Of a stretch of 64,000 nucleotides of DNA, positions 10,078 to 61,991 are shown piece after piece. The stretch lies in contig OY969557.1 in the NCBI GenBank assembly GCA_963701025.1, forward strand, positions 36,849-100,848, written 5' to 3'. A program made the position numbers and the translations under genes. The notes beneath the pieces are model-generated. The model was not told the DNA's origin. It did no database searches and worked only from the letters and a program-made list of their open reading frames with translations. The stretch is from an uncultured bacterium (lineage in GTDB: Bacteria > Patescibacteriota > Minisyncoccia > Phycocordibacterales > PALSA-1337). The stretch's first letter is position 1; every line of letters begins with the position of its first letter.

Positions 10078-10104
10078 AAAAGTGTCAAGAAAGTTGTCAC
10101 TTTT
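10078..10104. repeat. palindromic motif AAAAGTGTCAA-GAAAG-TTGTCACTTTT (member of a recurring family)
   Basis: Near-perfect inverted repeat. The same arm sequences recur at 15307-15331 and 61965-61991, and relatives occur at 26146-26210 and 61864-61927. Confidence 0.6.
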
Positions 10105-10304
10105 AATGAGTAAAGGGTATGGGATATCTATGATCGGACCCCCCGTTTTCAAAACCGTATATCTATACGGAATACACACTGCACCCCACGATTCATAGCA
10201 GTTGATATGATGTTTTATGTCCTGAATCGTATGGTTATACGGATTTGAGAATAGGATGTCGGAGAGAGAGGTGTCCCGTCTCGCCGGATAAAAAAGCCGC
10301 TTTC

Positions 10305-10333
10305 TTGTCAAGGCTCCTTAAATCTGCTATATT
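10305..10333 (+). promoter_or_regulatory. sigma70-like promoter for RNase P RNA (TTGTCA-N17-TATATT)
   Basis: The -35 and -10 hexamers have 17-bp spacing and sit immediately upstream of the rnpB 5' end. A similar TGCTATATT -10 context lies upstream of lepA. Confidence 0.4.
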
Positions 10334-10339
10334 GCCCCC

Positions 10340-10792
10340 AGCTGTACCAGACGACCGCGCCGCGCCTTTTTGGAGCCTAAAAAATTTCGGCTTCGAAAAG
10401 GCGCGGTGAGGAAAGTCCGAACACCGGCTTTGTGGGGACATCAAAGCGATCGCTCCCATAAAGCAGACGAGTAGCAGGTAACGCCTGTCAGGGTAACGCC
10501 CAGAGGTGCGAACAGTGACGCCCGAGCCGAAAGGCGGAGGCTCCGCGATATTCGCCGGTCGAAAGGCTGGCGGATGAGGCGGATGAATTCCTTGGCGACA
10601 GGGAAGTGCAACGGCAAAATCCTTACTTCGGTGCAAGACCGCGTCCCGCGAGGCCCTCAAAAGCCGAACGGGAAGAGTCGCTCGAGGTCGGCAGTGATGC
10701 CGATCCCAGATATATGGTTGTCCCGTCCGTTCGCCCTTCGCCGCTTGGCGGAGGCGGATGGATAGACAGAATTCGGCTTACGGTACGGCCAG
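10340..10792 (+). ncRNA. rnpB: RNase P RNA (bacterial type A), approximate ends
   Basis: The conserved P4 strands GAGGAAAGTCCG (10407-10420) and ACAGAATTCGGCTTA (10766-10780) are present, together with GGTAACGCC and AAGTGCAACGGCAAA internal motifs. A P3-like hairpin gcgcctttttggagcc...cggcttcgaaaaggcgc lies near the 5' end. Confidence 0.8.
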
Positions 10793-10907
10793 GAGATCCC
10801 CGTTTCGTTCCCGTCATTTTGACGGCGGACGAGCGGGGATTTCCGTTGGCGCTTGCCGAGCGGTTTGCTATACTTACAGGGCATTTTACCAGCACTAATT
10901 TTCCCAC

Positions 10908-13340
10908 ATGCCCATGAACCCAGAGTCCTCATCGAGTCGCGAACTTTCAAGGATCGAGGCATGGGCCTATCGCGTCCTCGTTGCCGCCGTATTCCTGGTC
11001 CCGCTCGCATTCCTGCCGACTAACTATGTCTCTCTTGATTTGGTAAAGACGGTCATCATCGTTCTTGCCGTTGCCGCTTCGGCTGTCCTCTATGTTTTCG
11101 TCGCTTGGAAGGAGAAGGCGGCCGTACTGCCGCCTCGCGCCATCCTCTGGTCGTCTGCGGCGATCATCGTCTCGGTCGTGGCGTCCGCGCTCGCCGTCCA
11201 TCCGATCTCGAAGTCGTTCTTCGGCCAAGGGTTCGAGACCGACACGGTCGGCTTCATTCTCGTCCTCTTCGGTGCTCTCTGCGTCTCCTATACGGCGATC
11301 GTCCGTCGCCCGGAGCACGCCGTCGGCCTTTATGCCGCCGTCGTCGCGTCTTTTTTCGTACTTGAAATATTCCACGCTCTGCGCTTCATCTTTGGCCAAG
11401 GTTTCGCTTCGCTAGGCATACTCTCATCTGTGACCGCGACTGCATTGGGAAGCTGGTATTCCATAGGAGACTACGCTCTTATCGTGTTCATCATCGTTAT
11501 CACTGCCCTTACTCTCCTGCCTCTGTCGCGCGTCATGAAGATAGTCTATGGTCTTGTCGCTCTCGCTGCTTTTGTCGGGGTGTTTTTCGTCAATGATATG
11601 CGCGCATGGGCTGTTGCCGCCGTGGTATTTTTGGGCTTTGCTCTCTGTGCCACTTTTTCTCGGCCTAGCCCAGAACCTGATCGTGCCAAAAGTGATCAAT
11701 CAGGAAAGAGCATGTCTATTGTCCGCGTCTGGCTCATTCGGATTGCCTGGTTGCCGTTCGTGGCCTTCATCGTCTGTGCGGGCTTTGCCTGGAAGGGAAG
11801 CGTTATTGCCAGCCCAGCCATCGGCGCGATCGGCGCTAACTATTCGGAAGCGCAGTTGCCGTGGCAGCAGACTCTCGACGTCGGGGCCGGAGCGATCAAA
11901 GATTCACCGATCCTTGGGGCCGGGCCCAACCGATTCACCCAAGCCTATATCGCCCACAAGCCGGCCGAGGTCAATGCGACCGACGCCTGGAGCGTTGAGT
12001 TCAGCTCCGGCTCCGGCTTCATACCGACCCTCTTCGTCACGGAAGGACTCTTTGGCATCGTCGCCTGGATCGTCTTCCTGGTCTTCCTCGGCATCGTCGG
12101 TGCCCGTGCATTGCGCTACGTCGGCCGGCGGACCGCCGATCCCCGTGAGCGTTTCATCCTTATCTCTTCCTATGCCGTCTCGGTCTTCCTTTGGCTTATG
12201 CTCATAGTCTCGGTCCAGCCTCACGCGCTCATCTTTCTCACATTCGTAGTCATGGGCGTTTTTCTAGGTTCGTCGGTTTCATTCGGCGCCGCTTCAGGAT
12301 GGGTGATTCCGTTCGAGGCAGGAAGGCGCGCCAGGATCTCTCCTTACGCTCTCGGGCTTGTCGTCTTTCTAGCCGCGGCGGTTTCAGTGATCTATATCAA
12401 GGATGCCGTAGCTCTCGCGTATTTCGGCGCTGGCATCAGAGAGTTGAACGTTTCGTCTGATGCCCCGGCCGCCGATGCCGACTTTTCCCGGGCGCTTGCT
12501 CTCCATGATTCAGATATCTTCTGGCAGGCGCGCGCCGAAGCCGGCATATCCGCTGCGCAGAAAGTAATATCTTCGGTTACGCCGTCGTCGCCGGCTTCGA
12601 CCACGCAGGCCGCCGCGACCGCGGTCGCGGCGATCATCAATCGATCTCTCGGCTATGCGGAAAAAGCCGTGGCCTACGATCCGTCGTATTATTCCAATTA
12701 CCTTTCCGAAGCTCGCGTATCGGCCCAGGCCGCTAGCGTCGGCATGACAGGTGCGTACGACACCGCCGTCGCCGCCTACACCCAAGCCTCGCGTCTCGAT
12801 CCGGGGAACCCGTCCATATATCTCTCTCTGGCGCAACTCCAAGCGCAGATGAATAAGCTTCCTGACGCTCTTCAGACGCTAGGTTCCGCCCTTCAGGTCA
12901 AGAACAATTACCTCGACGCCATATATCTCCTGTCGCAGGTCGAGGCGGCTCAAGGCAACTTGAAAGACGCCATAACCGCCGCCGGAGTGGCCATACAGAT
13001 CAACCCGCAAAACCCTCTTCTCTTTTTCCAGCTCGGCCTTCTGGAATACAATAACGCCGCCTATAGTGACGCTGTTGCCGCGCTCGAAAAAGCAGTCGCC
13101 CTCGAGTCAGATTACGCCAATGCGCGCTACTTCCTGGCCCTCTCCTACGCCCGTTTGGGCAGGACCGCCGACGCCCTCACCCAGTTCAACCAACTGGCCG
13201 TCTCCAATCCCGGCAACCAGACGGTCCAGTCCGCCATAACTGCTCTCAAGTCTGGCAAGTCCATATTCGCTCCTGCTACGGCTTCCGCTGCCGCCGCGGC
13301 CAAAAATCCCCAGCTTCCTCTCAAGGAAAAGAGCCAATAG
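10908..13340 (+). CDS. polytopic membrane protein, O-antigen ligase (Wzy_C)-like with C-terminal TPR repeats
   Basis: 810 aa with about 12 predicted TM helices, then repeated AxxYxxLAxxY-type TPR-like motifs (e.g. ANARYFLALSYARLGRTADAL). Confidence 0.5.
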   Translation: MPMNPESSSSRELSRIEAWAYRVLVAAVFLVPLAFLPTNYVSLDLVKTVIIVLAVAASAVLYVFVAWKEKAAVLPPRAILWSSAAIIVSVVASALAVHPISKSFFGQGFETDTVGFILVLFGALCVSYTAIVRRPEHAVGLYAAVVASFFVLEIFHALRFIFGQGFASLGILSSVTATALGSWYSIGDYALIVFIIVITALTLLPLSRVMKIVYGLVALAAFVGVFFVNDMRAWAVAAVVFLGFALCATFSRPSPEPDRAKSDQSGKSMSIVRVWLIRIAWLPFVAFIVCAGFAWKGSVIASPAIGAIGANYSEAQLPWQQTLDVGAGAIKDSPILGAGPNRFTQAYIAHKPAEVNATDAWSVEFSSGSGFIPTLFVTEGLFGIVAWIVFLVFLGIVGARALRYVGRRTADPRERFILISSYAVSVFLWLMLIVSVQPHALIFLTFVVMGVFLGSSVSFGAASGWVIPFEAGRRARISPYALGLVVFLAAAVSVIYIKDAVALAYFGAGIRELNVSSDAPAADADFSRALALHDSDIFWQARAEAGISAAQKVISSVTPSSPASTTQAAATAVAAIINRSLGYAEKAVAYDPSYYSNYLSEARVSAQAASVGMTGAYDTAVAAYTQASRLDPGNPSIYLSLAQLQAQMNKLPDALQTLGSALQVKNNYLDAIYLLSQVEAAQGNLKDAITAAGVAIQINPQNPLLFFQLGLLEYNNAAYSDAVAALEKAVALESDYANARYFLALSYARLGRTADALTQFNQLAVSNPGNQTVQSAITALKSGKSIFAPATASAAAAAKNPQLPLKEKSQ

Positions 13341-13360
13341 CCACAGCGTCACCCGTATAC

Positions 13361-15038
13361 ATGGTCAAGAAATGGTTCTCATTCATCGGCAAGGAAATAC
13401 GCGGTCTTCATGAGGCCGCGTATCTTCTGGCGATTTTCGCCCTCCTTTCCCAACTTCTCGGCCTCGTCCGGGACAAGCTCTTGGCTTTCACTTTCGGCGC
13501 CGGACACAGTCTCGATATCTACTACGCGGCGTTCCGGATACCTGATCTCATATTCGCCTCGGTCGGCTCTCTGGTCTCCGCTTCCATTCTCCTTCCGTAT
13601 TTCATCGAGCGCTTCGGACGGAATTCAGAAGAGGGCCGAGCCTTTTCCGACGCCATATTCACCATATTCTTCGGCCTGATGATCGTCGTCTCGGTCATCA
13701 TGTTCGCCATCGCCCCGTGGCTCATCCCCCGTGTCATACCCGGCTTCGCCCACGACCCGTCCCTGCCGGACCTCATCTTCTCCATGCGCATCATGCTCCT
13801 GTCGCCATTCTTCCTCTCCCTTTCCAATCTCTTCTCCAGCCTGACCCAGATGAGACATCGCTTCCTGGTCTACGCGGCGTCGCCGGCTCTCTATAACATC
13901 GGCATCATCGCCGGTACGCTCCTCATATATCCTCTGCTCGGCGTCCGCGGCTTGGCCATCGGCGTGGCCATCGGCGCCTTCCTCCACATGGGCATACAGA
14001 TGCCGTTCCTCTCCGGCGAGAAGCTCATGCCGCGCTTCACTCGCGCCATCGATTGGCCGCACGTGAAGGCCGTCCTCTACTCGGCTCTTCCGCGCACGGT
14101 CACCCTGTCGGCCAACCAGATCGCCTCTTTCGTCCTCGTCTCGCTGGCTTCGCTCATGACGGCCGGCTCCATCTCCATATTCAATTTCGCTTTCAATCTC
14201 CAATCGGTGCCCTTGACCATCATCGGCGCCAGTTATTCGTCCGCCGTCTTTCCGACATTGTCTCGCCTGTATTTCGATAAGAACATAAAGGAGTATCCTG
14301 GAGAAGATGATCGCATCGGCCAGGCACATCATCTTCTGGTCCATGCCCATCATGGTGCTCTTCATCGTCCTGCGCGCCCAGATCGTCCGCACGGTCTTGG
14401 GCGCCGGTAAGTTCGATTGGGCCGATACCCGGCTCACCGCCGCCATGCTGGCTCTCTTCACCATCTCGACCATCGGCCAGAGCCTGATCGTGCTTTTCGT
14501 CCGTGCCTTTTACGCCGAGGGCAAGACCAGCAAGCCGCTCCTCATCAACGCCATTTCCGCGACGCTCATCGTCGTCTCCGGTTTTGGATTCATACGTCTT
14601 TTCCAGATGTACCCGATATTCCAATATTTCATCGAAAATCTCCTCAAGGTCGATGGCCAGACCGGCACCATCGTGCTCACGCTGGCTCTGGCATATTCGC
14701 TCGGCGTCATCGTCAACACGGTCCTGCATTGGTGGACGTTCGCTCGGACGTATCCCGGATTTACCAAACCGGTCATGTCGACCCTGTTCCACAGCTTTGC
14801 CGCCTCGGTCATCATGGGCTATGCCGCGTTCCAGGGCTTGCGCCTGTTCTCCTTCTTCCCGCAGGAGAAGGTCTGGGGCATATTCATGCAGGGCTTCTGC
14901 GCCGGGCTGTCAGGACTCATTATCGGCGTCGCCGTCCTCATCCTGCTCAAGAACAAGGAGCTCGCCGAAGTCTGGCGCACTCTCCATCACAAGATATGGA
15001 AAGCCAATGTGCCGCCGGCGGAGGTGGAGCATTTGTAG
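13361..15038 (+). pseudogene. murJ: murJ (lipid II flippase, MviN family) interrupted by a single +1 frameshift near 14297
   Basis: ORF 13361-14410 carries the MurJ N-terminus (LGLVRDKLLAFTFGAGHSLDIYYAAFRIPDLIF). ORF 14307-15038 carries the C-terminal half in the +1 frame. Removing one C at tatCCtgg restores ...DKNIKEYLEKMIASARHII... Could be a sequencing indel. Confidence 0.6.
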
Positions 15039-15306
15039 GGAAGCGCGCGTAAATCCTCAGAGATTTCTGTCGATATAATGCGTGGCTTTTTGATACATCC
15101 ATTTCGTGCGCTTTTCCGTGGTCGATCTTCGGGCAATTTTTCTCTTTTCGAATTTCTTCAGGATATAAAGCGTCGTTGTCCTTGGAAGTTTTGCTTGCCG
15201 AGCTACGACAGAGACATCTGCATATAAGGACTGTCAATCAAATAGGCGGCACTTGCAAATGATGCTTAGGGGCGGGGGAGAGGACATGTATTTTGCTCAC
15301 CCAGTG

Positions 15307-15331
15307 AAAGTGTCAAAAAAGTTGACACTTT
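15307..15331. repeat. perfect palindrome AAAGTGTCAA-AAAAG-TTGACACTTT (motif family), about 100 bp upstream of lepA
   Basis: Seen directly; both strands contain the TTGACA hexamer. Confidence 0.6.
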
Positions 15332-15428
15332 GCGGGAAATACACAAACCCAACACCCTACCCCCGTCTAGTTTATATGGCCTAAATACTTTTTGTAAATC
15401 AGCCTGAATACTGCTATATTCACTGCAC

Positions 15429-17288
15429 ATGACCCCCTCCCATATCCGCAACTTCAGCATCATCGCCCACATAGACCACGGCAAGTCCACTCTTGCCGAC
15501 CGCTTGCTTGAGATCACGGGAACGATCGAAAAACGGAAGATGCAGGAGCAAGTGCTCGATAGCATGGAATTGGAAAGGGAACGGGGCATCACCATCAAGC
15601 TTCAACCGGTGCGTATGATGTGGCGGCCCGGCGGGACGGACAAGACCGGAACAAAAGGCGATGAATACATGCTTAATCTGATCGACACACCCGGCCACAT
15701 CGATTTCTCATATGAAGTTTCGCGCGCGCTCAAGGCCGTCGAAGGATCTCTATCTTCTAGTCGATGCCACGCAGGGCGTCCAGGCCCAGACCCTGACTAC
15801 TTTGAATATGGCCAGGGAAGTCGGGACTTGCCATAATTCCCGTCGTCTCCAAGATAGATTCGCCGTTGGCGCGCACCGATGAAGTGGTAAAAGAAGTCAG
15901 CCAGCTCCTCGACTGCGCCGAATCTGACGTCGTTAAAGTCTCTGGTAAGACCGGCGAAGGCGTCGAGCATCTTCTAGACGAGATCATCAGAAGGATTCCC
16001 GCGCCTCAAAGTCCTCCACCCTCTATCCTCCACCCTCTATCCTCCACCCTCCACCCTCCACCCTCTACTTTCCGCTCCCTCATCTTCGACTTCCAATACT
16101 CCAACCACATTGGCGTCATCGTCTATGTCCGTGTCATGACCGGTTCGGTCAAGCGCCACGACAAGCTTGTATTCAAAGTATCCGGAAGGGAATTCGAGGC
16201 CATCGAAGTCGGCATATTCAAGCCTGACGAAACAGTCGCCGAGTCGCTCTCCGCCGGCGAGATAGGCTACATCGTCACCGGGATAAAAGAGCCGGGCATC
16301 GCCTCGGTCGGAGACACCATAGCTTCGGTCAAGGACACCTTGCCGCCGCTACCAGGCTATCAGACGCCGCGGCCGGTCGTTTGGGCCTCGCTCTATCCGG
16401 AATCGCAGGACGATCTGCCGCTCCTGCGCCAGGCCTTGAGCCGGCTCAGGCTGTCCGATTCGTCCTTCACCTATGAAGAAGAGGCTTCCGGCACCCTCGG
16501 CAAAGGCTATCGTTGCGGCTTCCTCGGCATGCTCCACCTCGAGATAGTGACCGAGCGCCTGCGCCGGGAATATCACATCGAGCTCGTCATCACCATGCCG
16601 ACCATCACTTATGCGGTCGAGCTCAAGAATGGCAAGAGATCAATCGTGTATTCGCCGTCACTGTTTCCTGACGAGAATGAAGTGCAAAAGTCTCCGAACC
16701 GATAATGACCATGAAGATAATCACGCCGCCGCAATATCTCGGTGGCCTGATGAAGCTCATATACGACCATGAAGGAGAGATACTCTCCACCGATAATTTC
16801 GGCGACAATCGGACTCTCCTCACGCTGCAGATGCCCTTGCGCGAGCTCATGCGCAATTTCTTCGACGAAGTCAAGAGCGTCTCATCCGGCTATGCTTCGA
16901 TATCCTACGACATCACCGAGAGCGGACCGGCCGACGTCGTGCGCATGGATATCCTGGTCGCCGACGAGCCGGTGGCGGCATTTGCCCGCATAGTCTCGCG
17001 CCGCCGAGCAGAGGAAGAAGCCGAGAAGCCGTCGAGCGTCTCTACGACATCATGCCGCGCGAGCTCTTCACCTATAAGATCCAGGCCAAAGCTCTCGGCC
17101 GCATCATATCCTCGCGCACGATATCCGGCAAGAAGAAAGACGCCGCCGCCACGCTCTCCGGAGGCGATATCACCCGCAAGATGAAATTGCGCGAGAAGCA
17201 AAAAGAGGGCAGGAAGCGCCTCAAGGAGCACGGCTCGGTCATCATCCCGCAGGAAGTCTTCGTAAAGATGATGCGGTCGGGGGAATGA
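15429..17288 (+). pseudogene. lepA: lepA (elongation factor 4) with at least 4 frameshifts plus an in-frame CCTCCACCCT-type tandem-repeat expansion
   Basis: Four successive ORFs (15429-15836, 15866-16705, 16705-17184, 17052-17288) tile the LepA sequence. It runs from [11 protein letters not shown] through [16 protein letters not shown] and TITYAVELK to the ELFTYKIQAKALGRIISSRTISGKKKDAAATLSGGDITRKMKLREKQKEGRKRLK...VIIPQEVFVKMM end. Single-nt insertions lie near 15758 and 15824 and single-nt deletions near 16688 (A4 tract) and about 17040. The repeat tract 16012-16072 inserts about 13 extra residues (PPPSILHPLSSTLHPPPSTF). Confidence 0.7.
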
Positions 17289-17430
17289 TCCTTATCTCTG
17301 CCATAAAGCAGGGAAATAGAGCATGATCATGCTCACGATGACCAGGATGCCGATGAACGATGAAGCCGACCCCGGCGATCTTGCGGGTTTTTTCGTGAAA
17401 TAGCATAGTCCGTGTAGTATACTGTGAAGC

Positions 17431-17814: not shown

Positions 17815-17853
17815 TACTTCATATCCTCATACTATATACTTCATACGTTCCCT

Positions 17854-20194: not shown

Positions 20195-20236
20195 CCCCAT
20201 TTTCAAATCTTGCCATGGCAAGATTTGAAAATGGGG
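20195..20236. repeat. 42-bp perfect palindrome CCCCATTTTCAAATCTTGCCATGGCAAGATTTGAAAATGGGG
   Basis: Verified as self-complementary by eye; centred on CCATGG; no flanking T-run. Confidence 0.7.
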
Positions 20237-20276: not shown

Positions 20277-20308
20277 AATTTCCCCCTAGCTGTAGCTAGG
20301 GGGAAATT
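20277..20308 (-). terminator. 14-bp-stem hairpin (aatttccccctagc-tgta-gctagggggaaatt) followed on the minus strand by a T-run; probable gpmI terminator
   Basis: Perfect inverted repeat. The minus-strand downstream sequence is ttttgcc. It lies just 3' of the gpmI stop. Confidence 0.55.
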
Positions 20309-20317: not shown

Positions 20318-21912
20318 CTATGAGAACAACACCCTCCCGGTCATCTCTTTCGGCACCGGTAGTCCGAGCAAGCTCAAAACCGTCGGGGCCACGTCTGAAA
20401 GTCCGCCATCGTGGAGCTTTACGGCGTCCTTAACAGCAGCTCCCGCTAGAATGCACGGCACGGGACTGGTCGTATGAGAGGTATGTCTCACGCCGGTCGC
20501 GGGATCGACGTTGATCTCCGCATTGCCATGATCGGCGGTTATGAGAGCGGTGCCGCCGGCGGCTTCCAAGGCCGTGATGACGCGTTTTAACTGCGCGTCG
20601 ATCTTTTCCACCGCGACAATTATAGCCGGAACGTTGGCGGTATGGCCGACCATGTCCGCGTTGGCGAAATTTATGAATATAAAAGGCGTGCCGCTCTTGA
20701 TCTCGGCGATGGCCGTGTCGGCAATGGCCTCGGCCCGCATCTCCGGAGCCTGATCGTGAGTCTTTATATCCTTACGGCTGGGGATTAGAATGTCGCGCTC
20801 GCCCTGGTACGGCTTCTCGCGCCCGCCGTTCAGGAAATAAGTGGCGTGGGCGAATTTTTCCGTCTCGGCGATGTGTGCCTGGCCGAGCCCGGCCCTAGCG
20901 ACTTCTTGGCCTATGGTCGTGCCGACCACGGTTGGCGGGAAAGCCACGATACAGTCGAAATCCGCGCTGTATTCGGTCAGTGTGACGAACATGATATTAT
21001 CGTTCTTTCCCCTAGAGATGAGTTTCTCCGAGAGCATGCGAGCCCGGTCGGCCCGGAAATTGAAGAAGAAAACAGCGTCATTCTTCTCTATGGCACAGCC
21101 ATTCGCCGTCGACCCGTCTCCTTGCGGAATGACGCATACGGCAGGTTCCATGAATTCATCGCTTTTGCCGGTCTCGTATTGGTCTTCCATGTATGCCGAT
21201 GGTTTTATCGAACAAACATTGCCCACGCATTCGAACATTGCCTGTTCGGTTTTGGCCAGCCGGTCCCAGTTATGATCGCGATCCATGGCATAATAGCGGC
21301 CGGAAATCGTGGCTATGAAAAAATGCGGTGGCACCGAGTATGTCGGCAGATATAGGATGGATAGTCGGCATTGAGCTCGGCCAATACCGCCTCCAGTTCT
21401 TTCAGATATTCCGAAGCGCTCTGCGGCGGCGTGTCGCGGCCGTCGGTGAAGACGTGGATGGCTACTTTTTGCGCGCCTTTTTCCTTGGCAAGGCGCAGGA
21501 AAGCATAAAGATGCTCCTGATGGCTGTGGATGCCGCCGGGGGAGACTAGACCTTGGACATGCAAGGTGGAGTCGTATTTCTTCACATGCTCGAACAGGCC
21601 GAGGATAGCCGGATTTCTGGCGAAAGCGCCGGAGTGTATGGCTTTGTCTATGCGCACGAGATCGCTGTCCACTATGGTGCCGGCGCCAATGGTCATATGG
21701 CCGACCTCGCTATTGCCCATGACGCCTTTCGGAAGGCCGACCGCCGGTCCGGAAGCCTGAAGCAGGCAATGAGGGTATGTCTTCCAAAGATGATCGAAGA
21801 ACGGTTTTTTCGCCGCCGCGATGGCATTGTCTTTCGTGTCCGCGCGATAGCCCCAGCCGTCGAGGACGATGAGCATGACGGGTTTTTTCGGCAAAGAGAT
21901 TTCTTTCGTCAT
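20318..21912 (-). CDS. gpmI: 2,3-bisphosphoglycerate-independent phosphoglycerate mutase, split by a frameshift at an A6 homopolymer (21318-21323)
   Basis: The N-terminal ORF 21313-21912 (LIVLDGWGYR...NSEVGHMTIGAG...) and C-terminal ORF 20318-21334 (...IATISGRYYAMDRD...ITADHGN...) are in frames differing by one. Adding one T to the 6-T run on the coding strand fuses them. Confidence 0.8.
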
Positions 21913-26142: not shown

Positions 26143-26210
26143 GTAGGGGTGACGAAAAATTTTCGTCAGTGGCTTAAAATAAGGGTTGACGAAAAAAGTT
26201 CGTCACCCCT
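26143..26210. repeat. ~70-bp structured repeat, copy A (GGGGTGACGAA-aaatt-TTCGTCA...GTTGACGAA-aaaag-TTCGTCACCCC)
   Basis: About 90% identical to 61860-61928. It contains two TGACGAA/TTCGTCA hairpins, and its outer ends are complementary. Confidence 0.7.
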
Positions 26211-54182: not shown

Positions 54183-54782
54183 TTACAATTTTTCCTCTCC
54201 CGGCAGTATCGATATGTTATTTATGGGCAGGAGCCGGACGATCGGCCTACCGATGATGAAATGCCGATCGAGCGGACCCCAGACGCGCGAGTCGGAGCTC
54301 TGGGCGCGATTGTCGCCCATGACGAAATAGTGCGTGGCATCCATGGTGGTGGTGGCGATATTGTCGTATGACGAGTGGTCTGCCGCTACGAAGGAGCTGT
54401 CCACGATGAAGCCTTTGGGATGCGCCGCATTCGCCACGAATACTTTGCCGTCCGTGACGGAGAAGCTCTCTTTCGGAAGGACGATGATGCGCTTTATATA
54501 GTAGATCGAAGGATCATTCGGATACTCAAAGACGATGACATCTCCCCTCTGCGGCGGCTCGAAGCGATAGGTCAGACGATCTACAATGAGAAATTGGCCC
54601 GTGGCGAAAGTCGGATCCATAGAGGCCCCGTTCACGATGAATGGCTCGGCCACCAGCCACCGTATCGGCAGGGCTATTATGAGGGCGATGATGATGACCT
54701 GTACCCACTCGCGCACGGCATGCCAGAAGGGATGCTTATTCGGGGTACTGGCTTGTGGTGCCGCCTCAGAGTCAGGGCTCAT
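54183..54782 (-). CDS. lepB: signal peptidase I
   Basis: NGASMDPTF (catalytic Ser)...YIKRIIVLP (Lys box)...GDNRAQSSDSRVWGP. Confidence 0.85.
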   Translation of the reverse strand: MSPDSEAAPQASTPNKHPFWHAVREWVQVIIIALIIALPIRWLVAEPFIVNGASMDPTFATGQFLIVDRLTYRFEPPQRGDVIVFEYPNDPSIYYIKRIIVLPKESFSVTDGKVFVANAAHPKGFIVDSSFVAADHSSYDNIATTTMDATHYFVMGDNRAQSSDSRVWGPLDRHFIIGRPIVRLLPINNISILPGEEKL

Positions 54783-55212
54783 GATTGGCGTATTGTACTA
54801 CCAAGAGGGGTTTGACACAAGAGGTTGGAGTGTGATGTGGGCTTTTTATGGAAAATTTTTCTATGATTTTGGGCGGATAGGAAGACGGATAAGAAAGCGG
54901 ATAAGAAGGCGCAGTGAAGAAAAAAATTGAATGAGGAGATTTTAGCGAGATAGTGAGGGGTGGTTCTGTCTCCTAAAGGTGGTCGTGTGGGATGTTATAC
55001 GAACTGAATTATGTAACTATTTGTGATATATCACTGTCTCTTCTAACGAATCAATCAAAAGGGTCCTATTAAGGTGAAAACGGCTCAAAACAAGGGTATA
55101 TTGATATTTTTAGTATAAAATGACACTTTTATGTCAAAAGTGCTTGACTTTTAAACTTTAATAGAATAGTATATAAGTATTATTACAAAATAATGTAATT
55201 TTAAACAAATCC

Positions 55213-56484
55213 ATGTTAATCACAAGAATTAAAGCTAGTAATTTCTATGGGATAAAAGACCCAATAGAAGTATCTTTCACCGAAGGGGGTGAGAAAGAAA
55301 AAATTGGATATGCGAACAAAGGAAAAGAGAGAATCTCGCTTATCTCTGGTTTTTATGGTGCAAATGCTTCAGGCAAAAGCACTGTCTTAAATATCATTGA
55401 CACAATAATTCGAATTATGCTCGCACGACAGCAAGAATTTGTACTCGCACCTAATGGTATAAAGCAAGAGACTATTATCTGTCTTCCCAATTACCATAAA
55501 AGTATGGTATCAAAACCGATCGTGATGGAGATGGATTTTATAATTAGTGAGGATAAATACAATTATTCGATCTCAATTATAAATGAGGGTAAAGAAATTG
55601 CAGAAGAAGTCTTATATAAAAACAATAAAAAAATATTCAATAGAAAGGATAATGCTATTTCTTTTGAATCAAATGTGGAAAAAAAGATGGGCGATTTAGC
55701 AAAAAATATTGTTGCACCAAAGAAGTCATCTTTTCTCTCTGTCGTTTTAGATGAAAGCTCTGATATATCAGTGTTCGCTAATCTCAAGGAAGAAATAGGT
55801 ATTTCTGAGATTAAACATATAAAAAACAAGATCTGCTTTATCACTGATAAAAGATCAGTTCAGATGGGGCAAAACAACATAAATGGTTTAGTAGCTTTTG
55901 CTGTTGATTATCTTAATGACATCAAAAATCAGAATGCAAAACTTAGTGCTGTTAATTCCATAGTTAAATATTTTGAACCTTCCTTTGAAAGTCTTATCAT
56001 TAAAAAAGAGGGAGACAACAATCAGGTCAATAAGTCTTTTGCTTTCACCTATGAAGCAAAATATAGCGACTTCTATAAGAATCTCGGCATTATGGAACTT
56101 TCTGCTGGAACAAGAGAGCTTATTTCTTATATAGGCGATGTTCTTAAGATCATAAAGTCAGGCGGCGTTATTATATATGATGAGACAAGCAAGTATTACC
56201 ATCCGGATATGGAAATGGCTATATTAAATCTCTTCAAAGATAAAGATATAAACAAGCATAATGCTCAGATATTTTTCTCATCGCATAATCATGAGACTTT
56301 TGATCTTTTACAAAATGATCAAGCTCATATCTTAGAAAAAAAGGACAATAATATAACCGTTGCAAAAGTATCGGACTACGATGTAAAGGAAAGAGATAAC
56401 GTAAAAAGAATATATCGTCTTGGCTCTCTTGGCGGAATTCCTAATACTATTGATTTCAATAGAATAATAAATAATCTCTTATAA
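55213..56484 (+). CDS. OLD/ABC-type ATPase (AAA_15/AAA_21-like; RloA/AbiLi/AriA-like)
   Basis: N-terminal IKASNFYGIKDPIEV...GFYGANASGKST (Walker A), LSAGTRELISYIGDV (ABC-signature-like), VIIYDETS (Walker B) and FFSSHNHE (H-loop). Strongly AT-rich. Confidence 0.7.
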   Translation: MLITRIKASNFYGIKDPIEVSFTEGGEKEKIGYANKGKERISLISGFYGANASGKSTVLNIIDTIIRIMLARQQEFVLAPNGIKQETIICLPNYHKSMVSKPIVMEMDFIISEDKYNYSISIINEGKEIAEEVLYKNNKKIFNRKDNAISFESNVEKKMGDLAKNIVAPKKSSFLSVVLDESSDISVFANLKEEIGISEIKHIKNKICFITDKRSVQMGQNNINGLVAFAVDYLNDIKNQNAKLSAVNSIVKYFEPSFESLIIKKEGDNNQVNKSFAFTYEAKYSDFYKNLGIMELSAGTRELISYIGDVLKIIKSGGVIIYDETSKYYHPDMEMAILNLFKDKDINKHNAQIFFSSHNHETFDLLQNDQAHILEKKDNNITVAKVSDYDVKERDNVKRIYRLGSLGGIPNTIDFNRIINNLL

Positions 56485-56488
56485 GCTT

Positions 56489-57055
56489 ATGAATAAAAAG
56501 AAAAGCTTTAAAGTATATTATTTATTGATCAGTGAAGGGACCACTGAATTCAATCTATTCGGTTACTTAACGACCAAAAAATTTAAAGAGGATTTTGTAA
56601 AATCTAACATTCAGTTCAGTATCAAGGTAGAAATTGTAGAAATCTCAGTGTCTCAAGGTAAATTAGGTGGTGTTAGTGATGTTAAGGGCTTTAAATCAAA
56701 GTACGATTTAATTAAAGAAAGATATGACGGGCAAAAACGTTTTTTCCTCCTAGACAAAGACCTCGATGATTCTTCAGCTATAGAAGCTCTTATCAAACAA
56801 AATAATGATATTGTGCAATTTATAGAACATAATTCAGAATATCTATTATTGAAACTTTCTGGTAAGAATCCTAAAGATCCTTCTAATTTCACCAACCTGG
56901 CTGAATTTAGGAACTATTGCAAATCTGAATTTCAAAAGCATTTCAGCAAAAAGGCCTCTGATTTCAAAGACACTGACTTTGATTCCATATTTAACAATAT
57001 TACAGATAAAGAAATAAAGGCCAGTTTTATTGAGTTATTCTCAACCCTATCATAA
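56489..57055 (+). CDS. RloB-type TOPRIM-like protein (AbiLii/AriB-class nuclease partner)
   Basis: YYLLISEGTTEFNLFGYL (the vcEGxTE TOPRIM glutamate motif), FFLLDKDLDD (DxD-like motif) and IEHNSEYLLLKLSG (a SNPxFExWLLLH-like C-terminal motif). Starts 5 bp after the ATPase stop. Confidence 0.65.
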   Translation: MNKKKSFKVYYLLISEGTTEFNLFGYLTTKKFKEDFVKSNIQFSIKVEIVEISVSQGKLGGVSDVKGFKSKYDLIKERYDGQKRFFLLDKDLDDSSAIEALIKQNNDIVQFIEHNSEYLLLKLSGKNPKDPSNFTNLAEFRNYCKSEFQKHFSKKASDFKDTDFDSIFNNITDKEIKASFIELFSTLS

Positions 57056-57148
57056 AGGGGTGTTTAAGAAGAAGATACACTGACCTCTCCTTTTATTTCA
57101 AATGATTATATCCTTTCGGCTGTTTATGCGATCATCATCGTAGTTGCG

Positions 57149-57355
57149 TTGGCGATCAGGCGAGAAAAGAACGATATCGCGATCTTGCTTTTCGGCTTCT
57201 TCATCATGATCGTCTCTGAATACCTCTTTATCTCCACCGGCGTCGAGACCTTCCAAAAAAACAGCTTATTCGGCATAATGCCCATGTGGCTCCCGTTCCT
57301 GTGGGCCTATGGATTCGTCGCCATAAAGAGATCAGTAGAAATCCTCGGCCGATAA
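57149..57355 (+). CDS. possible small membrane protein (frame open from 57068, no ATG)
   Basis: About 95 codons, hydrophobic, native-like GC content. Speculative. Confidence 0.25.
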   Translation: MAIRREKNDIAILLFGFFIMIVSEYLFISTGVETFQKNSLFGIMPMWLPFLWAYGFVAIKRSVEILGR

Positions 57356-57404
57356 GTGCTCTCGACTTTACACTTTGCATTTTTAACTTTAAACTGAATA
57401 CACT

Positions 57405-57998
57405 ATGCCTTACATCATCGCCGGCCTCGGCAATCCCGGAAAAGAATATGAGGATACGCGCCACAACACTGGCCGTATCGTCTTGGATGCGGTTAGGAAA
57501 GAATTTGGCGGAGAATTAGAATTCGACAAGAAGCTGAACGCGCAGATCGCCGAAGTGAAGATCGGCAAAGAAAAAATCATTTTAATAGCACCGGACACGT
57601 TCATGAATAAGTCCGGCAAGGCCATCGGCCAATTAGTCAAGAGTGTAAAAGCTGCCGAGAAGCTAATAGTCATCTACGATGATTTTCAATTGCCCATAGG
57701 CCGTGCCAAGATTTCCTATAACAAGAGCTCCGGCGGCCACAACGGTCTGGAATCCGTCATCAAGGCAGTCAAGACCGAAGCCTTTCCGCGCATCCGTATC
57801 GGTACTGCCGCTGCTGATGCCAAAGGCAACGCAAAGGTTCCTCATGGCGACGACAAGATAGAGAAGTTCATACTTGGCGATTTCAAGCCGGATGAATTGA
57901 AAGTATTGAAGAAAGTCGCCAAAAGAACTGCCGAAGCCGTAGGGATGATCGTCAAAGAGGGAAGAGAGAAGGCAATGTCGGTCTTCAATCAGGGGTAA
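57405..57998 (+). CDS. pth: peptidyl-tRNA hydrolase
   Basis: IIAGLGNPGKEYEDTRHNTG...SSGGHNGLESV. Confidence 0.85.
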   Translation: MPYIIAGLGNPGKEYEDTRHNTGRIVLDAVRKEFGGELEFDKKLNAQIAEVKIGKEKIILIAPDTFMNKSGKAIGQLVKSVKAAEKLIVIYDDFQLPIGRAKISYNKSSGGHNGLESVIKAVKTEAFPRIRIGTAAADAKGNAKVPHGDDKIEKFILGDFKPDELKVLKKVAKRTAEAVGMIVKEGREKAMSVFNQG

Positions 57999-59357
57999 TC
58001 ACTTCACCCCCACGAACGACAACGCCATCTTTTGCTCCTTGGGATCGAAGACGGTTATTTTGAACGGATAAGTCTTGCCGAGCTCGAGAGCCTTGCGGAG
58101 CTTCTCTTCGGAACCGAACTCGGAGACGTGGACCAGACCGGCCACGCCTTCCTCGATGGAGGCCAGGGCGCCGTGCTTGTTGAACTTGATGATGACGCCG
58201 GTCACCGACATGTCCTTGGCGTATTTTTTGGCCGCTTCTTTCCACGGGTTTGGCCGGAGCTGTTTCATCGACAGGGAGATCTTGCCGTCCTTGATTTCTA
58301 TGATCTTGACCTTCACTTTCTGGCCGACCTTGACGAAATTCTTCGGGTTTTCCACTAGGCCCCAGTCGATCTCGGAGATATGCACGAGGCCCTCGAGGCC
58401 CTCCTCCAGCTTTATGAAGACGCCGAAATCCACGACGCCGGTGGCGGTGCCTTCGACCTCGTCGCCGATCTCGTACTTGCTGACGATCTTTTCCTTCTCT
58501 TTGGACTCGGAACCCTTCTCGGAGAAGATGAGCTTGCCTTCCTTGGGATCGGCCGTGATGATCGAGACCGACAAGCGCGTTCCCACGAGCTTTTTCAGCT
58601 CGTCGAGGATCTTGTCCTTGTCGCCGTCGCCCACCTTGGGATAATGGTCGCCTTTGAGCTGGGAGGCCGGCAGGAAGCCGACGATACCCTGCCAATCCAT
58701 GAGAAGGCCGCCCTTGTTGGCTTCCTTGACCAGGATGTCGAGCACCTTCTTCTCCTTGATGGCTGATTCGGCTTCGCTCCAAATGAGCGCCTGACGGGCT
58801 TCCTTCAATGACAGCTCGTAATAACCTTCGGGATGCGCATCATCGACGATCTTGGCGGCGATGGTGTCTCCGAGGTTTATCTTCTTGATGACGTCGCGGG
58901 CGATGATGAATTCGCGGCCGTATATGATGCCGGTGCCGAAGGGTGCCAGGTCGACGAATATGGACGACTTCTCTATGGCGATGACCGGGCCTTCGACGAG
59001 ATCGCCCACCTGTGGCGGGTTCTTCATGGAACCGACCATCTTGCCCATGAGAGTCAGTTGCTGCTCGTCGGAGAGCTTCATGGCCTCGTTCCTCTTCGCT
59101 ACGCGTCGAGCCTCCGACGCCTCTGCGTCGGTCATGCCGGGATGATTGGCGGCTACGCGTGTGCGGGCGGCCGGTGCAGGCGCCGCTTTCTTTTCTTGGG
59201 CTTTCTTCTCGGTCTTTTCCGGCACTTTTTCCGAGACCTCGGTTGACTTTTCGCTTGCTTTCTTAGTCAGGCCGATCTTTTCATCCGCCTCACTTTTTAT
59301 ATTTTTCGATTGATCTTTCTTCGAACCGGACAGAGTCTCCCTTAATTTTTTGAACAT
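57999..59357 (-). CDS. rpsA: 30S ribosomal protein S1 (four S1 domains, Lys/Glu-rich N-terminal extension)
   Basis: Repeated S1-fold motifs (VGDLVEGPVIAIEKSSIFVDL..., VGTRLSVSIITADPKEGKLIFS..., VEGTATGVVDFGVFIKL...). Confidence 0.8.
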   Translation of the reverse strand: MFKKLRETLSGSKKDQSKNIKSEADEKIGLTKKASEKSTEVSEKVPEKTEKKAQEKKAAPAPAARTRVAANHPGMTDAEASEARRVAKRNEAMKLSDEQQLTLMGKMVGSMKNPPQVGDLVEGPVIAIEKSSIFVDLAPFGTGIIYGREFIIARDVIKKINLGDTIAAKIVDDAHPEGYYELSLKEARQALIWSEAESAIKEKKVLDILVKEANKGGLLMDWQGIVGFLPASQLKGDHYPKVGDGDKDKILDELKKLVGTRLSVSIITADPKEGKLIFSEKGSESKEKEKIVSKYEIGDEVEGTATGVVDFGVFIKLEEGLEGLVHISEIDWGLVENPKNFVKVGQKVKVKIIEIKDGKISLSMKQLRPNPWKEAAKKYAKDMSVTGVIIKFNKHGALASIEEGVAGLVHVSEFGSEEKLRKALELGKTYPFKITVFDPKEQKMALSFVGVK

Positions 59358-59591
59358 ATATTCTCTCGCGCCCCGCTTTTTAATTGATAATGAGGCCGAT
59401 GTATGTCTCGGCCAGAAGTGCGGGATGACACGTAGTGATTAAAACGAACCGCAAAACGAACCTGGTGATACTAGCGCATTTAAGGGTTTTTGTCGAATTT
59501 GCGGGTGTGTTTCAGATAGTGAAGATTTTCAGATAAAAAAGTGCCACCCGCAACTTGCGAGTGGACTTTTGTGAACCGATAATGGCGGCGT

Positions 59592-60014
59592 TCATGCCGC
59601 AGTTAAAGCTGGGGCATTGGCTAGGAAGAGACATCCCTTGACTGTTTCGACCAATTCCTCGATCTTGAAGGGCTTTACCAGGTATGCGCGCAACCCGTGC
59701 AACCGTGCCATCTGGCCTGCATTCTCCTCTGGAGCACCGGTAGCCATGATCACCGGCAAGTTAGGGAACCGCTTAGCCGCCCTCGCGACTGAGTACCCAT
59801 CAATTCCACCGGGCATTTGCCGATCAGTGATCAGCAGATCGAGAGTAGGACCTTCGGGCCCTTCGAGGTATGCAATCGCCTCTGTCCCATTTTTGCAAAT
59901 GATGAGGCTGATTTCCCCGAGCTGATTTTGAACGCTTTCGCTTTTAAAAACGTCCTCGGCCAACATTCTGAGGATTTCCTCGTCGTCGACGTACATTACT
60001 TTTATTGTCTTCAT
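59592..60014 (-). CDS. single-domain response regulator (CheY-like receiver)
   Basis: VMYVDDEE...LLITDRQMPGGIDG...YLVKPF. Confidence 0.7.
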   Translation of the reverse strand: MKTIKVMYVDDEEILRMLAEDVFKSESVQNQLGEISLIICKNGTEAIAYLEGPEGPTLDLLITDRQMPGGIDGYSVARAAKRFPNLPVIMATGAPEENAGQMARLHGLRAYLVKPFKIEELVETVKGCLFLANAPALTAA

Positions 60015-60068
60015 AACTTTATTTCAACTCCCACCTCCCACTATGTTTGCCCTCAATGGTAGCATATC

Positions 60069-60773
60069 ATGCACTATAAGTCAATAGAGCGCAAAGACAC
60101 AGATTTTGCTACCATAAGCCGCATGATCATCACTTTTCTCGGAGGCGAATCATTCAAGGTCTCGTTCGGCGATACGACGCTCGCTTTCAATCCCATTTCC
60201 AAGGATTCAAAATTGGCTACCGCCAAGTTCGGCGCGGACATCGTCCTTTCGAGCATCAATCATCCGGACATGAACGGCGTAGACCAAGTGTCATTCGGCG
60301 AGAAGAAGGCCTTCGCCGTGACCGGCCCGGGCGAATATGAGGTTAAGGGAGTCTTCATCAAGGGTTTCGGTTCGGAGTCGCACTATGACGGATCCGTCAA
60401 AGCGAGCGGTGAGAAGCGCATTAACACTATCTATTCGGTCTCGCTCGAAGGCATGAACATTTGTTTCCTCGGCGCGCTCGACCAGATCGAGCTTCCCAAG
60501 GATGCCGACGAGGGTCTCGACGGCGTGGATATATTGTTCGTGCCTATCGGCGGCAATGGTGTCCTCGACCCGGCTAAGGCCTATAAACTAGCAGTATCGC
60601 TCGAGCCGAAACTCATCATTCCCATGCATTACGGCGACATCGGCGGCAAAGACGCCTTGAAGGCCTTCCTCAAAGAAGCCGGCGAGAATCCCAAGCCGGT
60701 GACCAAGCTGACCCTGAAGAGGAAAGACCTCGAAGGCAAGGATGCCGAGGTTGCAGTCCTCGAGAAAGAGTAG
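60069..60773 (+). CDS. MBL-fold metal-dependent hydrolase (Lactamase_B_3 / UlaG-like)
   Basis: TFLGGESFKV...GDTTLAFNP...DILFVPIGG...LIIPMHY. Confidence 0.65.
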   Translation: MHYKSIERKDTDFATISRMIITFLGGESFKVSFGDTTLAFNPISKDSKLATAKFGADIVLSSINHPDMNGVDQVSFGEKKAFAVTGPGEYEVKGVFIKGFGSESHYDGSVKASGEKRINTIYSVSLEGMNICFLGALDQIELPKDADEGLDGVDILFVPIGGNGVLDPAKAYKLAVSLEPKLIIPMHYGDIGGKDALKAFLKEAGENPKPVTKLTLKRKDLEGKDAEVAVLEKE

Positions 60774-60785
60774 TATAATGTCGCC

Positions 60786-61079
60786 ATGACTATCCAATCA
60801 TATTTGGAAACTCTCCGCGCCAAGCCCGAGGGCGCTCGTAAGCAGATCGCTTTCTGGTCGTCGTTCGGCATAACCGCCATCATCTTCGTCTTCTGGCTGG
60901 CGTCATTCAATGTCTTCGGCGCCGCCGGAACGACCGTTGCCCAGGCGGTTAATAAAGCCGGCACCCCGTCGCAGTCCCTCATCGCCAGCGTCGGCGGATT
61001 CTTCGGCGATATCAAGGATCTCTTCTTCGCCCCGCGCAAAGTGACGTATACCGATATACAGGTAAGTCCTGGGAAGTAA
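60786..61079 (+). CDS. hypothetical small membrane protein
   Basis: 97 aa, one TM helix. Confidence 0.3.
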   Translation: MTIQSYLETLRAKPEGARKQIAFWSSFGITAIIFVFWLASFNVFGAAGTTVAQAVNKAGTPSQSLIASVGGFFGDIKDLFFAPRKVTYTDIQVSPGK

Positions 61080-61114
61080 GGAGCTCGGCGCCAATCGTGT
61101 AGCACTTTCTAGTT

Positions 61115-61399
61115 TTATATAACAGTAAGTTTCAGTCCCAGTCCGGCTGTTATTTTTTGCAGGAAAGAAAGTGTAGGGTTAGTTCTGCCGGATTCGAAGC
61201 GCGCGAGGGCCGATTGGGCTATACCAAGTTTCGCCGCTAATTGCTTTTGAGTGAGCTTCTTTTCGATGCGGGCTTTGGCCATGGCATGGTGTATCTTGAA
61301 TTCCAACTCAAGACTGTCGTAAGCTTTTTTATTTTCTGGGTCTGAAAGAAACTCTTTCATGAATTGTTTGTGTGTGGTGAATTGTTCGTGTGTTTTCAT
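61115..61399 (-). CDS. higA: HigA-like antitoxin (XRE-family HTH)
   Basis: LTQKQLAAKLGIAQSALARFESGRTNPTLSFLQKI. Confidence 0.7.
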   Translation of the reverse strand: MKTHEQFTTHKQFMKEFLSDPENKKAYDSLELEFKIHHAMAKARIEKKLTQKQLAAKLGIAQSALARFESGRTNPTLSFLQKITAGLGLKLTVI

Positions 61400-61428
61400 A
61401 GTGTTATCAGTATATCATATATGTTATA

Positions 61429-61746
61429 TCAAGCAATGTTAATAATCTCTTTTTGAACTTGTCTGGCATAATGAATGTCTCTAATATTTATTTTCCAGGC
61501 CTTTTTAACAAAACCGTGAATGATCCAAGCTCTATCTTTATGGAAGATATATAATATTCTTACTTTAACTTTTCCCTGAGTTCTCAATTCAAATAGACCC
61601 TTACCTAAACTCTTTGAGTCGGGCATATCCAGTAAATTCCCGTATTCTTCTAAGAGATTGATGGATCCTCTCGCACGGGAAGATGTAATATTGTCCAATT
61701 CATCTATAAATTTCTCTACTTTTTTGTTCCAATAAATGATTTCCAT
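61429..61746 (-). CDS. higB: HigB-like toxin (RelE/ParE superfamily, phage Gp49-like)
   Basis: GKGLFELRTQGKVKVRILYIFHKDRAWIIHGFVKKAWK matches the Gp49/HigB family. Toxin gene upstream of the antitoxin gene is the HigBA arrangement. AT-rich. Confidence 0.7.
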   Translation of the reverse strand: MEIIYWNKKVEKFIDELDNITSSRARGSINLLEEYGNLLDMPDSKSLGKGLFELRTQGKVKVRILYIFHKDRAWIIHGFVKKAWKINIRDIHYARQVQKEIINIA

Positions 61747-61859
61747 ACCTAGAGCGTATCAGGTCGAGATAAAGAAACGCTCAAAAAGTGATAAAGAAAA
61801 GCCTAATTTTCGATCAAAATTTGCCGAAGATCGATGGGGGGGCGCATGTTAGTGTGTAA

Positions 61860-61928
61860 GTAGGGGTGACGAAAAATTTTCGTCAATGGCTCAGAATATG
61901 GGTTGACGAGAAAAGTTCGTCACCCCCA
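61860..61928. repeat. ~70-bp structured repeat, copy B (about 90% identical to 26143-26210)
   Basis: Aligned by eye: gtaggggtgacgaaaaattttcgtcaatggctcagaatatgggttgacgagaaaagttcgtcaccccc. Confidence 0.7.
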
Positions 61929-61964
61929 GTGAGGAGGAGAGGAGCGTTCCCCCGGACACTTATC

Positions 61965-61991
61965 AAAAGTGACAAAAAAGTTGCCACTTTT
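61965..61991. repeat. palindromic motif AAAAGTGACAA-AAAAG-TTGCCACTTTT (motif family)
   Basis: Seen directly; it lies 37 bp after repeat copy B. Confidence 0.6.

Follow-up and report, generated by a model that had tools for sequence, protein, structure and literature searches.

How the same short palindrome came to lie in three separate intergenic spacers is the question raised by the 64-kb window analyzed here (the whole stretch of 64,000 nt from contig OY969557.1), which belongs to an 876-kb genome of the Patescibacteria (candidate phyla radiation, CPR). An initial annotation had described near-identical palindromes at three sites and offered three options for them, namely binding sites of a global dimeric regulator, a repeat family of the REP (repetitive extragenic palindromic) or MITE (miniature inverted-repeat transposable element) kind, or recombination sites. 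The three palindromes are present, all of them on the plus strand, and the second option is the one favoured here by their lineage-specific presence and absence, their inversion, the existence of in-frame copies and the copy-specific extension of the palindrome. It is thus rather probable that they belong to a palindromic insertion element of Patescibacteria, similar to rickettsial palindromic elements (RPEs) and to MITEs, whose apical 25-nt hairpin is under sequence-specific selection. The copies in the window are as follows:

10079-10103, plus strand: core of copy 1, full sequence AAAGTGTCAAGAAAGTTGTCACTTT, composed of AAAGTGTCAA-GAAAG-TTGTCACTTT, with a T.T mismatch at the variable pair (46.9 bits).
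15307-15331, plus strand: core of copy 2, AAAGTGTCAAAAAAGTTGACACTTT, composed of AAAGTGTCAA-AAAAG-TTGACACTTT, a perfect hairpin.
15270-15368, plus strand: long form of copy 2, an imperfect palindrome of ~95 nt, GGGGCGGGGGAGAGGACAT ... CCCTACCCCC, with the core at its tip.
61966-61990, plus strand: core of copy 3, full sequence AAAGTGACAAAAAAGTTGCCACTTT (48.8 bits).
61956-62000, plus strand: the whole of copy 3, in which the core, AAAGTGACAA-AAAAG-TTGCCACTTT with an A.C mismatch at the variable pair, is enclosed by an outer stem ACACTT/GAGTGT.

A count of the motif against base composition, named in the initial annotation as a possible refutation, gives three copies in the window and none in 100 dinucleotide-preserving shuffles of it. 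The three share the pattern AAAGTG-N-CAA / RAAAG / TTG-N'-CACTTT, each with a stem of 10 bp and a loop of 5 nt, (A/G)AAAG; they show 0-2 mismatches to AAAGTGTCAAAAAAGTTGACACTTT and are the only matches in the window when up to three mismatches are allowed. Likewise, a covariance model made from 27 copies recognizes these three sites only, with scores of 44-49 bits (E<1e-10). The stems of the core hairpins are weak, at -6 to -9 kcal/mol as DNA and with 3 G-C pairs out of 10, and the long form of copy 2 folds at -37.4 kcal/mol (z -3.2).

Beyond the window, a strict 23-nt pattern, AAGTGNCAANAAAGTTGNCACTT, was scanned against one genome per species (185,579 species), and the relatives were read as 8-kb loci; the core pattern can also be written as AAGTGNCAANNNNNTTGNCACTT, with two mismatches tolerated. 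The strict scan gave 20 loci, with 1-4 matches per genome, mostly in Patescibacteria (Saccharibacteria, Paceibacterota and others). Outside the CPR, matches occurred in Poriferisocius and Syntrophales, together with single ones in Streptacidiphilus, Sedimentibacter and a Chloroflexi metagenome-assembled genome (MAG), the last of them doubtful. About one third of the loci are intragenic, and the source genome carries at least three intergenic copies and at least two within open reading frames (ORFs) in its 876 kb. The invariant part of the family is the 25-nt apical hairpin, composed of a 10-bp stem AAAGTG-N-CAA/TTG-N'-CACTTT, with covariation between N and N', and of the 5-nt loop N-AAAG; among the 27 copies of the model, the variable pair is UA in 13, AU in 7, CG in 2, GC in 1 and unpaired in 4. 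Some copies top an imperfect palindrome of ~95 nt that is rich in G at its 5′ end, GGGGGAGGGACAT, and in C at its 3′ end, and these long forms end in terminal inverted repeats similar to GGGGGAGGGAC / GTCCCTCCCC, which the short forms lack. Stems are often lengthened by copy-specific complementary flanks, and intergenic copies tend to have runs of A4-6 and T4-6 flanking the stem. Two copies in one Saccharibacteria MAG (L010 1985-2310 and L017 1-117) have more than 70 nt of similar sequence in common downstream of the hairpin, up to a contig end. Several further copies are found no more than a few hundred bases from the end of a contig, which would be expected if assemblies are broken by the element or by its neighbours.

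On the other hand, a metagenome scan in which the loop was left free recovered many unrelated hairpins with random loops, in DNA of 25-70% G+C, for which generic A-tract/stem/T-tract hairpins and operators are the best reading. The commonest loop class in that scan was [AG]AAAG (14 of 122 rows, ~10 distinct loci), and its loci have G-run and C-run flanks, as in the window. An origin from phages or plasmids was rejected, since 50,697 phage and 72,556 plasmid records contained marginal partial matches only; a scan of viral contigs gave two matches, with other loops. A cyanobacterial repeat of the HIP1 type was discarded as well, because the window is not cyanobacterial and has only 5 GCGATCGC sites.

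The core also occurs at nine CPR sites within ORFs that are otherwise intact, in 9 of 9 cases in sense and in 9 of 9 in one frame, where it encodes the peptide S-(V/D)-K-K-V-(D/V)-T; one other sense frame and one or more antisense frames could be read through the core as well, but are never used. The host genes are of eight kinds, comprising Dus (at two positions), RsmI, GltX, LeuS, TruB, RecO, TopA (topoisomerase I) and a class-V aminotransferase, and the sites correspond, by Pfam coordinates, to loops or inter-domain linkers. The genome of the window itself bears the core in Dus (P0045) and RsmI (P0126), and in the AlphaFold model of P0045 residues 258-298, within the insert, have a predicted confidence (pLDDT) below 50 and lie between the TIM barrel and the C-terminal helices. 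At another locus (L010), the stop codon of ligA is furnished by the element. Apart from the core, CPR Dus and RsmI genes (P0001-P0240; e.g. L001 ~7000-7040) show other short and variable in-frame inserts in the same and in other loops, such as G+C-rich palindromes, CTGCCGGCAG, that read (I/L)PAG..., one of which, in P0127, is nested within the core hairpin's own loop. It may be a general feature of CPR proteins to carry in-frame palindromic inserts.

The nucleotide sequence of these genic copies is more constant than the encoded protein would need. The core codons of seven Dus orthologues that bear the insert (72-81% nucleotide identity) read AGT GTC AAR AAA GTT GAC ACT, and five of the six stem codons are identical in all seven, with AGC in one sequence, against a background in which 31 of 192 degenerate columns with a conserved amino acid (16%) are codon-invariant (binomial P ~5e-4). 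Position 1 of the loop is free in Dus (A, G or T), whereas positions 2-4 remain AAA even though AAG would be synonymous. A similar result was obtained for four RsmI orthologues, with 5 of 8 core codons invariant against a background of 22% (P ~0.016), and the one divergent RsmI sequence (L149) carries two C-to-T changes that both yield G.T(U) pairs. As for intergenic DNA, the perfect core of copy 2 is kept in relatives whose flanks are 65-78% identical. This conservation is not an artefact of ascertainment, because the orthologues were found through protein homology or synteny and not through the DNA pattern, and the codon tests are free of the bias of the strict scan. Gene conversion among copies is judged an unlikely cause, given tracts of 25 nt and ~5 copies per genome.

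Comparison across relatives, suggested in the initial annotation as a way of telling conservation from mobility, reveals both: gain or loss of copy 1 and of the Dus insert and inversion of copy 2, together with a core that is conserved in orthologous copies. Two parts of the window have syntenic counterparts, namely 9.9-17 kb in the metagenome contigs L036 and L097 (~78% nucleotide identity) and 49.5-59 kb in a Saccharibacteria-labelled MAG. Copy 1, located behind a ribonucleotide reductase gene, is absent from the orthologous spacer of L036 and of six contigs, L152-L157 (reductase at least 90% identical), which indicates a lineage-specific gain. In the spacer of copy 2, L036 and L097 carry the whole ~95-nt element inverted, with the loop CTTTC in place of AAAAG and the GGACAT arm on the opposite side. 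In a set of 120 Dus homologues, site 2 carries the insert in 8 of the 9 closest and in P0045 and lacks it in P0007, of the same clade, and in ~110 more distant sequences, while site 1 is occupied in P0063 only. The Dus inserts are either short (~12 aa, 36 nt) or long (30-50 aa, with the G-rich 5′ arm read as G-R-G-E/K), and in the long form the 5′ arm could pair with a sequence resembling native Dus, which suggests that the palindromes might grow by fold-back copying. Among RsmI homologues there are intact, point-mutated and apparently decayed inserts, as well as one with a second palindromic insert in the loop.

The pathway that best accommodates these data starts with an element that is gained or lost between close relatives, can flip in place and resides both in spacers and in frame in housekeeping genes. 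After insertion, the outer arms decay or are deleted, and the 25-nt core stays unchanged, even at synonymous positions; it would be the recognition site of a trans-acting protein that reads the sequence of the arms and part of the loop. Candidate readers would be a mobilising enzyme, a host DNA-binding protein that has co-opted the core or an RNA-binding protein. Copies 1-3 would be insertions of this kind, a recent one in the case of copy 1 and an old one in the case of copy 2, and they would not serve as promoters or terminators of the neighbouring genes.

Several observations weigh against such an insertion element. No mobilising gene could be tied to it in the window, where an IS30-like gene (1079-2056) has no ends that match; as this gene lacks matching inverted repeats it was rejected as the parent, and membership among the MITEs is thus partial, with terminal inverted repeats in the long forms and no parent insertion sequence (IS) found in the window. 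The taxonomic spread is patchy, and the few matches outside the CPR (Poriferisocius, Syntrophales) are of uncertain relationship. In the strict genome scan the loop and the majority of the stem bases were prescribed, so that the invariance of these positions across the family is partly built in. With the covariance model, the 208 kb that surround 31 seed copies yielded neither additional nor degenerate ones, and the element is therefore a low-copy one without a halo of decayed relatives. The single pair of empty and filled sites (L148 versus L144 and L146) shows no clear target-site duplication, its 3′ boundary is ambiguous because the 3′ arm resembles native Dus, and one pair is too few to define the ends of the element, whose boundaries are thus uncertain. 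Lastly, conservation of the core at synonymous sites is not what would be predicted for a purely selfish, decaying repeat. A more ambitious version, which we regard as a tentative possibility, is that the hairpin is a horizontally spreading cis-module, kept by purifying selection even in essential genes and read by a conserved protein. If this were the case, a mobile binding site would wire housekeeping genes and spacers into a shared process at the DNA or RNA level, for which chromosome organisation, replication, recombination and post-transcriptional control are candidates.

The surroundings of the copies in the window bear directly on the other explanations. Copy 1 lies between the terminator of the class II ribonucleotide reductase gene (~9985-10012) and the promoter of rnpB (10305-10333), and for this reason it is probably not transcribed. 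Copy 2 precedes the predicted lepA promoter (15392-15420) by ~60 nt within the spacer that separates murJ from lepA, and copy 3 lies between a toxin-antitoxin pair on the minus strand and gyrA, which starts near 62527, ~540 nt further on. The idea that copies tend to mark boundaries between core genes and accessory or decayed DNA does not hold, as copy 1 is flanked by ribonucleotide reductase and RNase P RNA and copy 2 by murJ and lepA, and only copy 3 adjoins an accessory pair. The -35-like hexamers that had been read into the arms fare no better: a -10 partner at a spacing of 16-18 nt is missing for every arm, the promoters predicted for rnpB and lepA lie elsewhere, and promoter scans around copies 1-3 gave no sigma-70 promoter that uses a hairpin arm.

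Chance palindromes without a common origin, determined by base composition, can be regarded as refuted. It is true that A-tract/stem/T-tract hairpins are common and that many unrelated metagenome hairpins combine the same arms with random loops, but three copies are observed in the window where none is expected, and 23 nt are identical among distant CPR genomes and in ORF copies that keep one frame. A more serious alternative is an operator, in which the two 10-bp arms would be the half-sites of a dimeric DNA-binding regulator and the copies would mark a small regulon. The strict conservation of the arms, with a single free but symmetric position, would be well explained in this way, as would the low copy number and the conserved core at orthologous intergenic and genic sites, and unrelated metagenomic palindromes with the same arms often lie near extra half-sites. 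The global dimeric regulator proposed at the outset is however hard to reconcile with nine in-frame sites in unrelated housekeeping ORFs, which all share one orientation and one frame. Equally hard to fit is the absence of a fixed position relative to promoters, copy 1 following a terminator and preceding the rnpB promoter and copy 2 lying ~60 nt ahead of the lepA -35 element. Moreover, copy 1 is absent in close relatives, positions 2-4 of the loop are conserved although the spacer of an operator need not be, and the sites are brought in by insertion, together with additional palindromic flanking sequence, all of which makes an operator improbable. Similar doubts affect a chromosome-level cis site, either like parS/matS or as the core site of a tyrosine recombinase (9-bp arms and a 7-bp asymmetric centre). 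Its density would be adequate (~1 per 20-200 kb, with at least five copies in 876 kb), it would be expected in ORFs and spacers alike, nucleotide conservation beyond the need of the protein and an asymmetric centre would follow naturally, and three copies do lie within 64 kb that also hold gyrB and gyrA. Nevertheless, a strict match exists in only about eight CPR species genomes, no recombinase adjoins any copy of the window, the orientation of copies in ORFs follows the gene, and the decaying outer arms and the long form point to insertion and not to an origin by point mutation, so this explanation is also held to be unlikely.

A role at the RNA level, in which the hairpin would act in transcripts as a terminator, as a site of processing or stability or as a stem-loop bound by a protein, has a comparably low probability. 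It would account for the sense bias of all ORF copies and of ~10 of 13 intergenic ones, for the A4-6/T4-6 runs around intergenic stems, for the fact that both stem changes of L149 give G.U pairs and for the L010 copy that follows ligA and supplies its stop codon. But copy 1 lies past the reductase terminator and ahead of the rnpB promoter, the inverted orthologue of copy 2 has a perfect core, and the A.C mismatches of copy 3, L008 and L017 favour the opposite strand. Termination in particular was rejected, as copies 1-3 were not called in the terminator scan, their stems are weak (3 G-C pairs), only T3-4 follows and copies exist within ORFs, where a terminator would be harmful to essential genes. 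No Rfam family matches either: with Rfam 15, neither copies 1 and 3 nor the ~70-bp repeat described below gave a match at E<=1, and no family reached its gathering score anywhere in the window. An insertion element with a selected core thus remains the preferred reading.

Among known systems, the closest parallel to this insertion element is found in the RPEs, palindromic repeats present in spacers and in frame in genes (Ogata et al. 2000, summarised in PMC10969869). In both cases, short palindromic repeats are found in intergenic DNA and in frame in unrelated housekeeping genes, where they encode a conserved peptide in tolerated surface regions, and both occur in small genomes of host-dependent bacteria. 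However, RPEs have ~100-150 nt and dozens of copies within one genus, whereas the element described here has 36 to ~95 nt, a handful of copies and a distribution across very distant CPR lineages; since the taxon and the core sequence also differ, the likeness is one of analogy only. MITEs such as Correia/NEMIS and ERIC resemble the element in being small and non-coding, in the terminal inverted repeats of the long forms, in their insertion polymorphism and in occasional in-frame fusions, but the element is low-copy, conserves its apex instead of its termini and has no identified parent IS. With REPs and REPINs it has in common an imperfect palindrome of 20-40 nt recognised as a hairpin, with a strand-specific core, and some of those are long maintained too. 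Yet REPs are extragenic and species-specific, amount to tens to hundreds of copies and have a 5′ GTAG and a RAYT gene, none of which is seen here. A REP/REPIN-RAYT system was therefore rejected, given 1-4 strict matches per genome, ~1/3 of the loci intragenic and no GTAG, and no Y1 transposase was present among the window proteins that were scanned or inspected. DNA uptake sequences (DUS/USS) and parS/matS sites also occupy orthologous positions, are tolerated in ORFs in preferred frames and are sometimes inverted repeats, but the former occur ~1 per kb, a density 100-fold higher than that of the element. With three copies per 64 kb and none beyond the seeds in the 208 kb of related loci, uptake sequences were discarded. 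In turn, parS/matS arise by point mutation and are symmetric, whereas the element arrives by insertion and its centre is asymmetric.

To our knowledge, almost no repeat biology has been described for the tiny, streamlined genomes of CPR/Patescibacteria, and we know of no report of synonymous-site constraint on a 25-nt core in RPEs. A search of full-text literature gave no paper that pairs 'palindromic element' with Patescibacteria or that contains any of four representative 19-nt core sequences. The same seven-residue peptide in eight kinds of housekeeping enzyme would represent a second, independent RPE phenomenon, with the difference that selection would preserve the nucleotide sequence of the core and not the peptide. 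The inserts would explain part of the length variation and 'extra loops' of CPR proteins and could break assemblies, and the 25-nt core might be used as a bait for a nucleic-acid-binding activity in organisms that are becoming cultivable.

Other sites of the window had been grouped with the three palindromes into a single family that included ~70-bp repeats and degenerate sites, a grouping that lacks statistical support. None of the degenerate copies is significant under the covariance model: 55133-55155 (for the copy placed at 55127-55155) has an E of 0.26, 535-559 (for ~536-557) one of 1.6 and 59534-59573 (for 59536-59570) one of 6.3, whereas the TTGACAC half-site at 54812 is an isolated heptamer. 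The third of these sites is a G+C-richer hairpin followed by T6, directly past the stop of a response-regulator gene (59592-60014, minus strand), and owing to the T run and this position it reads as an ordinary intrinsic terminator. It had also been considered as the orthologue of a copy upstream of rpsA in L009, but the two cannot be aligned and its features are those of a terminator. A further candidate, not listed in the initial annotation, lies next to copy 3:

62022-62051, plus strand: diverged relative, AATGCGCCAAC-CAATTAAA-GTTGGCACATT, 32 nt after copy 3 and with a longer loop.

Its right arm, AAAGTTGGCACATT, agrees with the family in 13 of 14 bases and it folds at -7.3 kcal/mol as DNA; the covariance model has no match there, and it may be assigned to the family only tentatively. 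The ~70-bp repeats, on the other hand, are better treated as a second palindromic family, with two copies in the window:

26143-26210, plus strand: copy A, a double-hairpin palindrome of ~67 nt, GGGGTGACGAAAAATTTTCGTCA ... TTGACGAAAAAAGTTCGTCACCCC, between prfA and a TrmB-type helix-turn-helix (HTH) gene.
61860-61928, plus strand: copy B, 92.5% identical to copy A, 37 nt upstream of palindrome copy 3.

The sequence described for these repeats and their hairpins, two TGACGAA...TTCGTCA in each, are as reported, but their kinship with the main family is not supported, since only the A-rich centre is common to both and the model does not detect them. Each of the two folds as one long hairpin, at -35 (A) and -37 kcal/mol (B), with z of -7.8 and -8.5, respectively. 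In their double structure they look similar to REPINs, which are doublets, and no further copies were found in ~0.94 Mb of related DNA.

Palindromes of the type AAAGTGGCAA-N5-TTGCCACTTT are common in non-CPR metagenomic DNA (L023-L142), for example in human gut contigs, and they show a GG-N10-GC spacing that we take to be that of sigma-54 promoters. Other palindromes of the same set have extra half-sites close by and are operator-like. These non-CPR palindromes are probably unrelated to the CPR element, and the resemblance to sigma-54 sites (TGGCA-N6-TTGC, the G/C variants) was set aside, as it concerns non-CPR metagenomic matches only and not the T/A and A/T variants present here.

Some further features of the window deserve mention, among them the RNA gene that follows copy 1:

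10339-10795, plus strand: rnpB, bacterial class A RNase P RNA (74.8 bits, E 1e-22).

The score of rnpB is under the Rfam gathering score of 100, hence it was missed by the default scan. Its promoter, TTGTCA-17-TATATT at 10305-10333, is conserved, and the gene is ~78% identical to those of L036 and L044, with an extra hairpin at ~10358-10408 relative to L036. Right after the reductase stop, at 9935-9985, there are short repeats containing CGAAT, AATCCGAATCTACGAATAGCATCCGAATGCTACGAATGGCGAATAA, which are kept in L036 and absent in L152-L157. Three genes are interrupted: lepA (15429-17184) runs in three frames through single-base indels, two of them within ~100 nt near 15760-15830, while murJ (13361-15038) and a phosphoglycerate mutase gene (20318-21912) are each split in two by a single-base frameshift. 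Either the genes have really decayed, or the frameshifts are errors of the assembly, perhaps owing to long reads. At the other side of the window, the accessory pair comprises genes for a Gp49/HigB-like toxin and an HTH_3 antitoxin (61115-61746, minus strand), immediately upstream of the 70-bp repeat and copy 3. A low-G+C island at 54800-57100 (39-41% versus ~52%) contains a gene for an AAA_21 (AbiEii-like) ATPase (55213-56484) and, next to it, an ORF of 188 aa without Pfam match. It resembles a defence-type module that was acquired, and its upstream region includes the weak palindrome at 55127-55155. The IS30-like gene at 1079-2056 resembles a transposase of that family by eye, with only a weak HTH_23 match in Pfam and no terminal inverted repeats found, and lies beside a gene for a ParB_N-domain protein that is cut by the window end (1-564, minus strand). 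Finally, two perfect palindromes, TCAAATCTTGCCATGGCAAGATTTGA at 20203-20228 and TTCCCCCTAGCTGTAGCTAGGGGGAA at 20280-20305, occupy a convergent spacer before the phosphoglycerate mutase gene and are probably bidirectional terminators.

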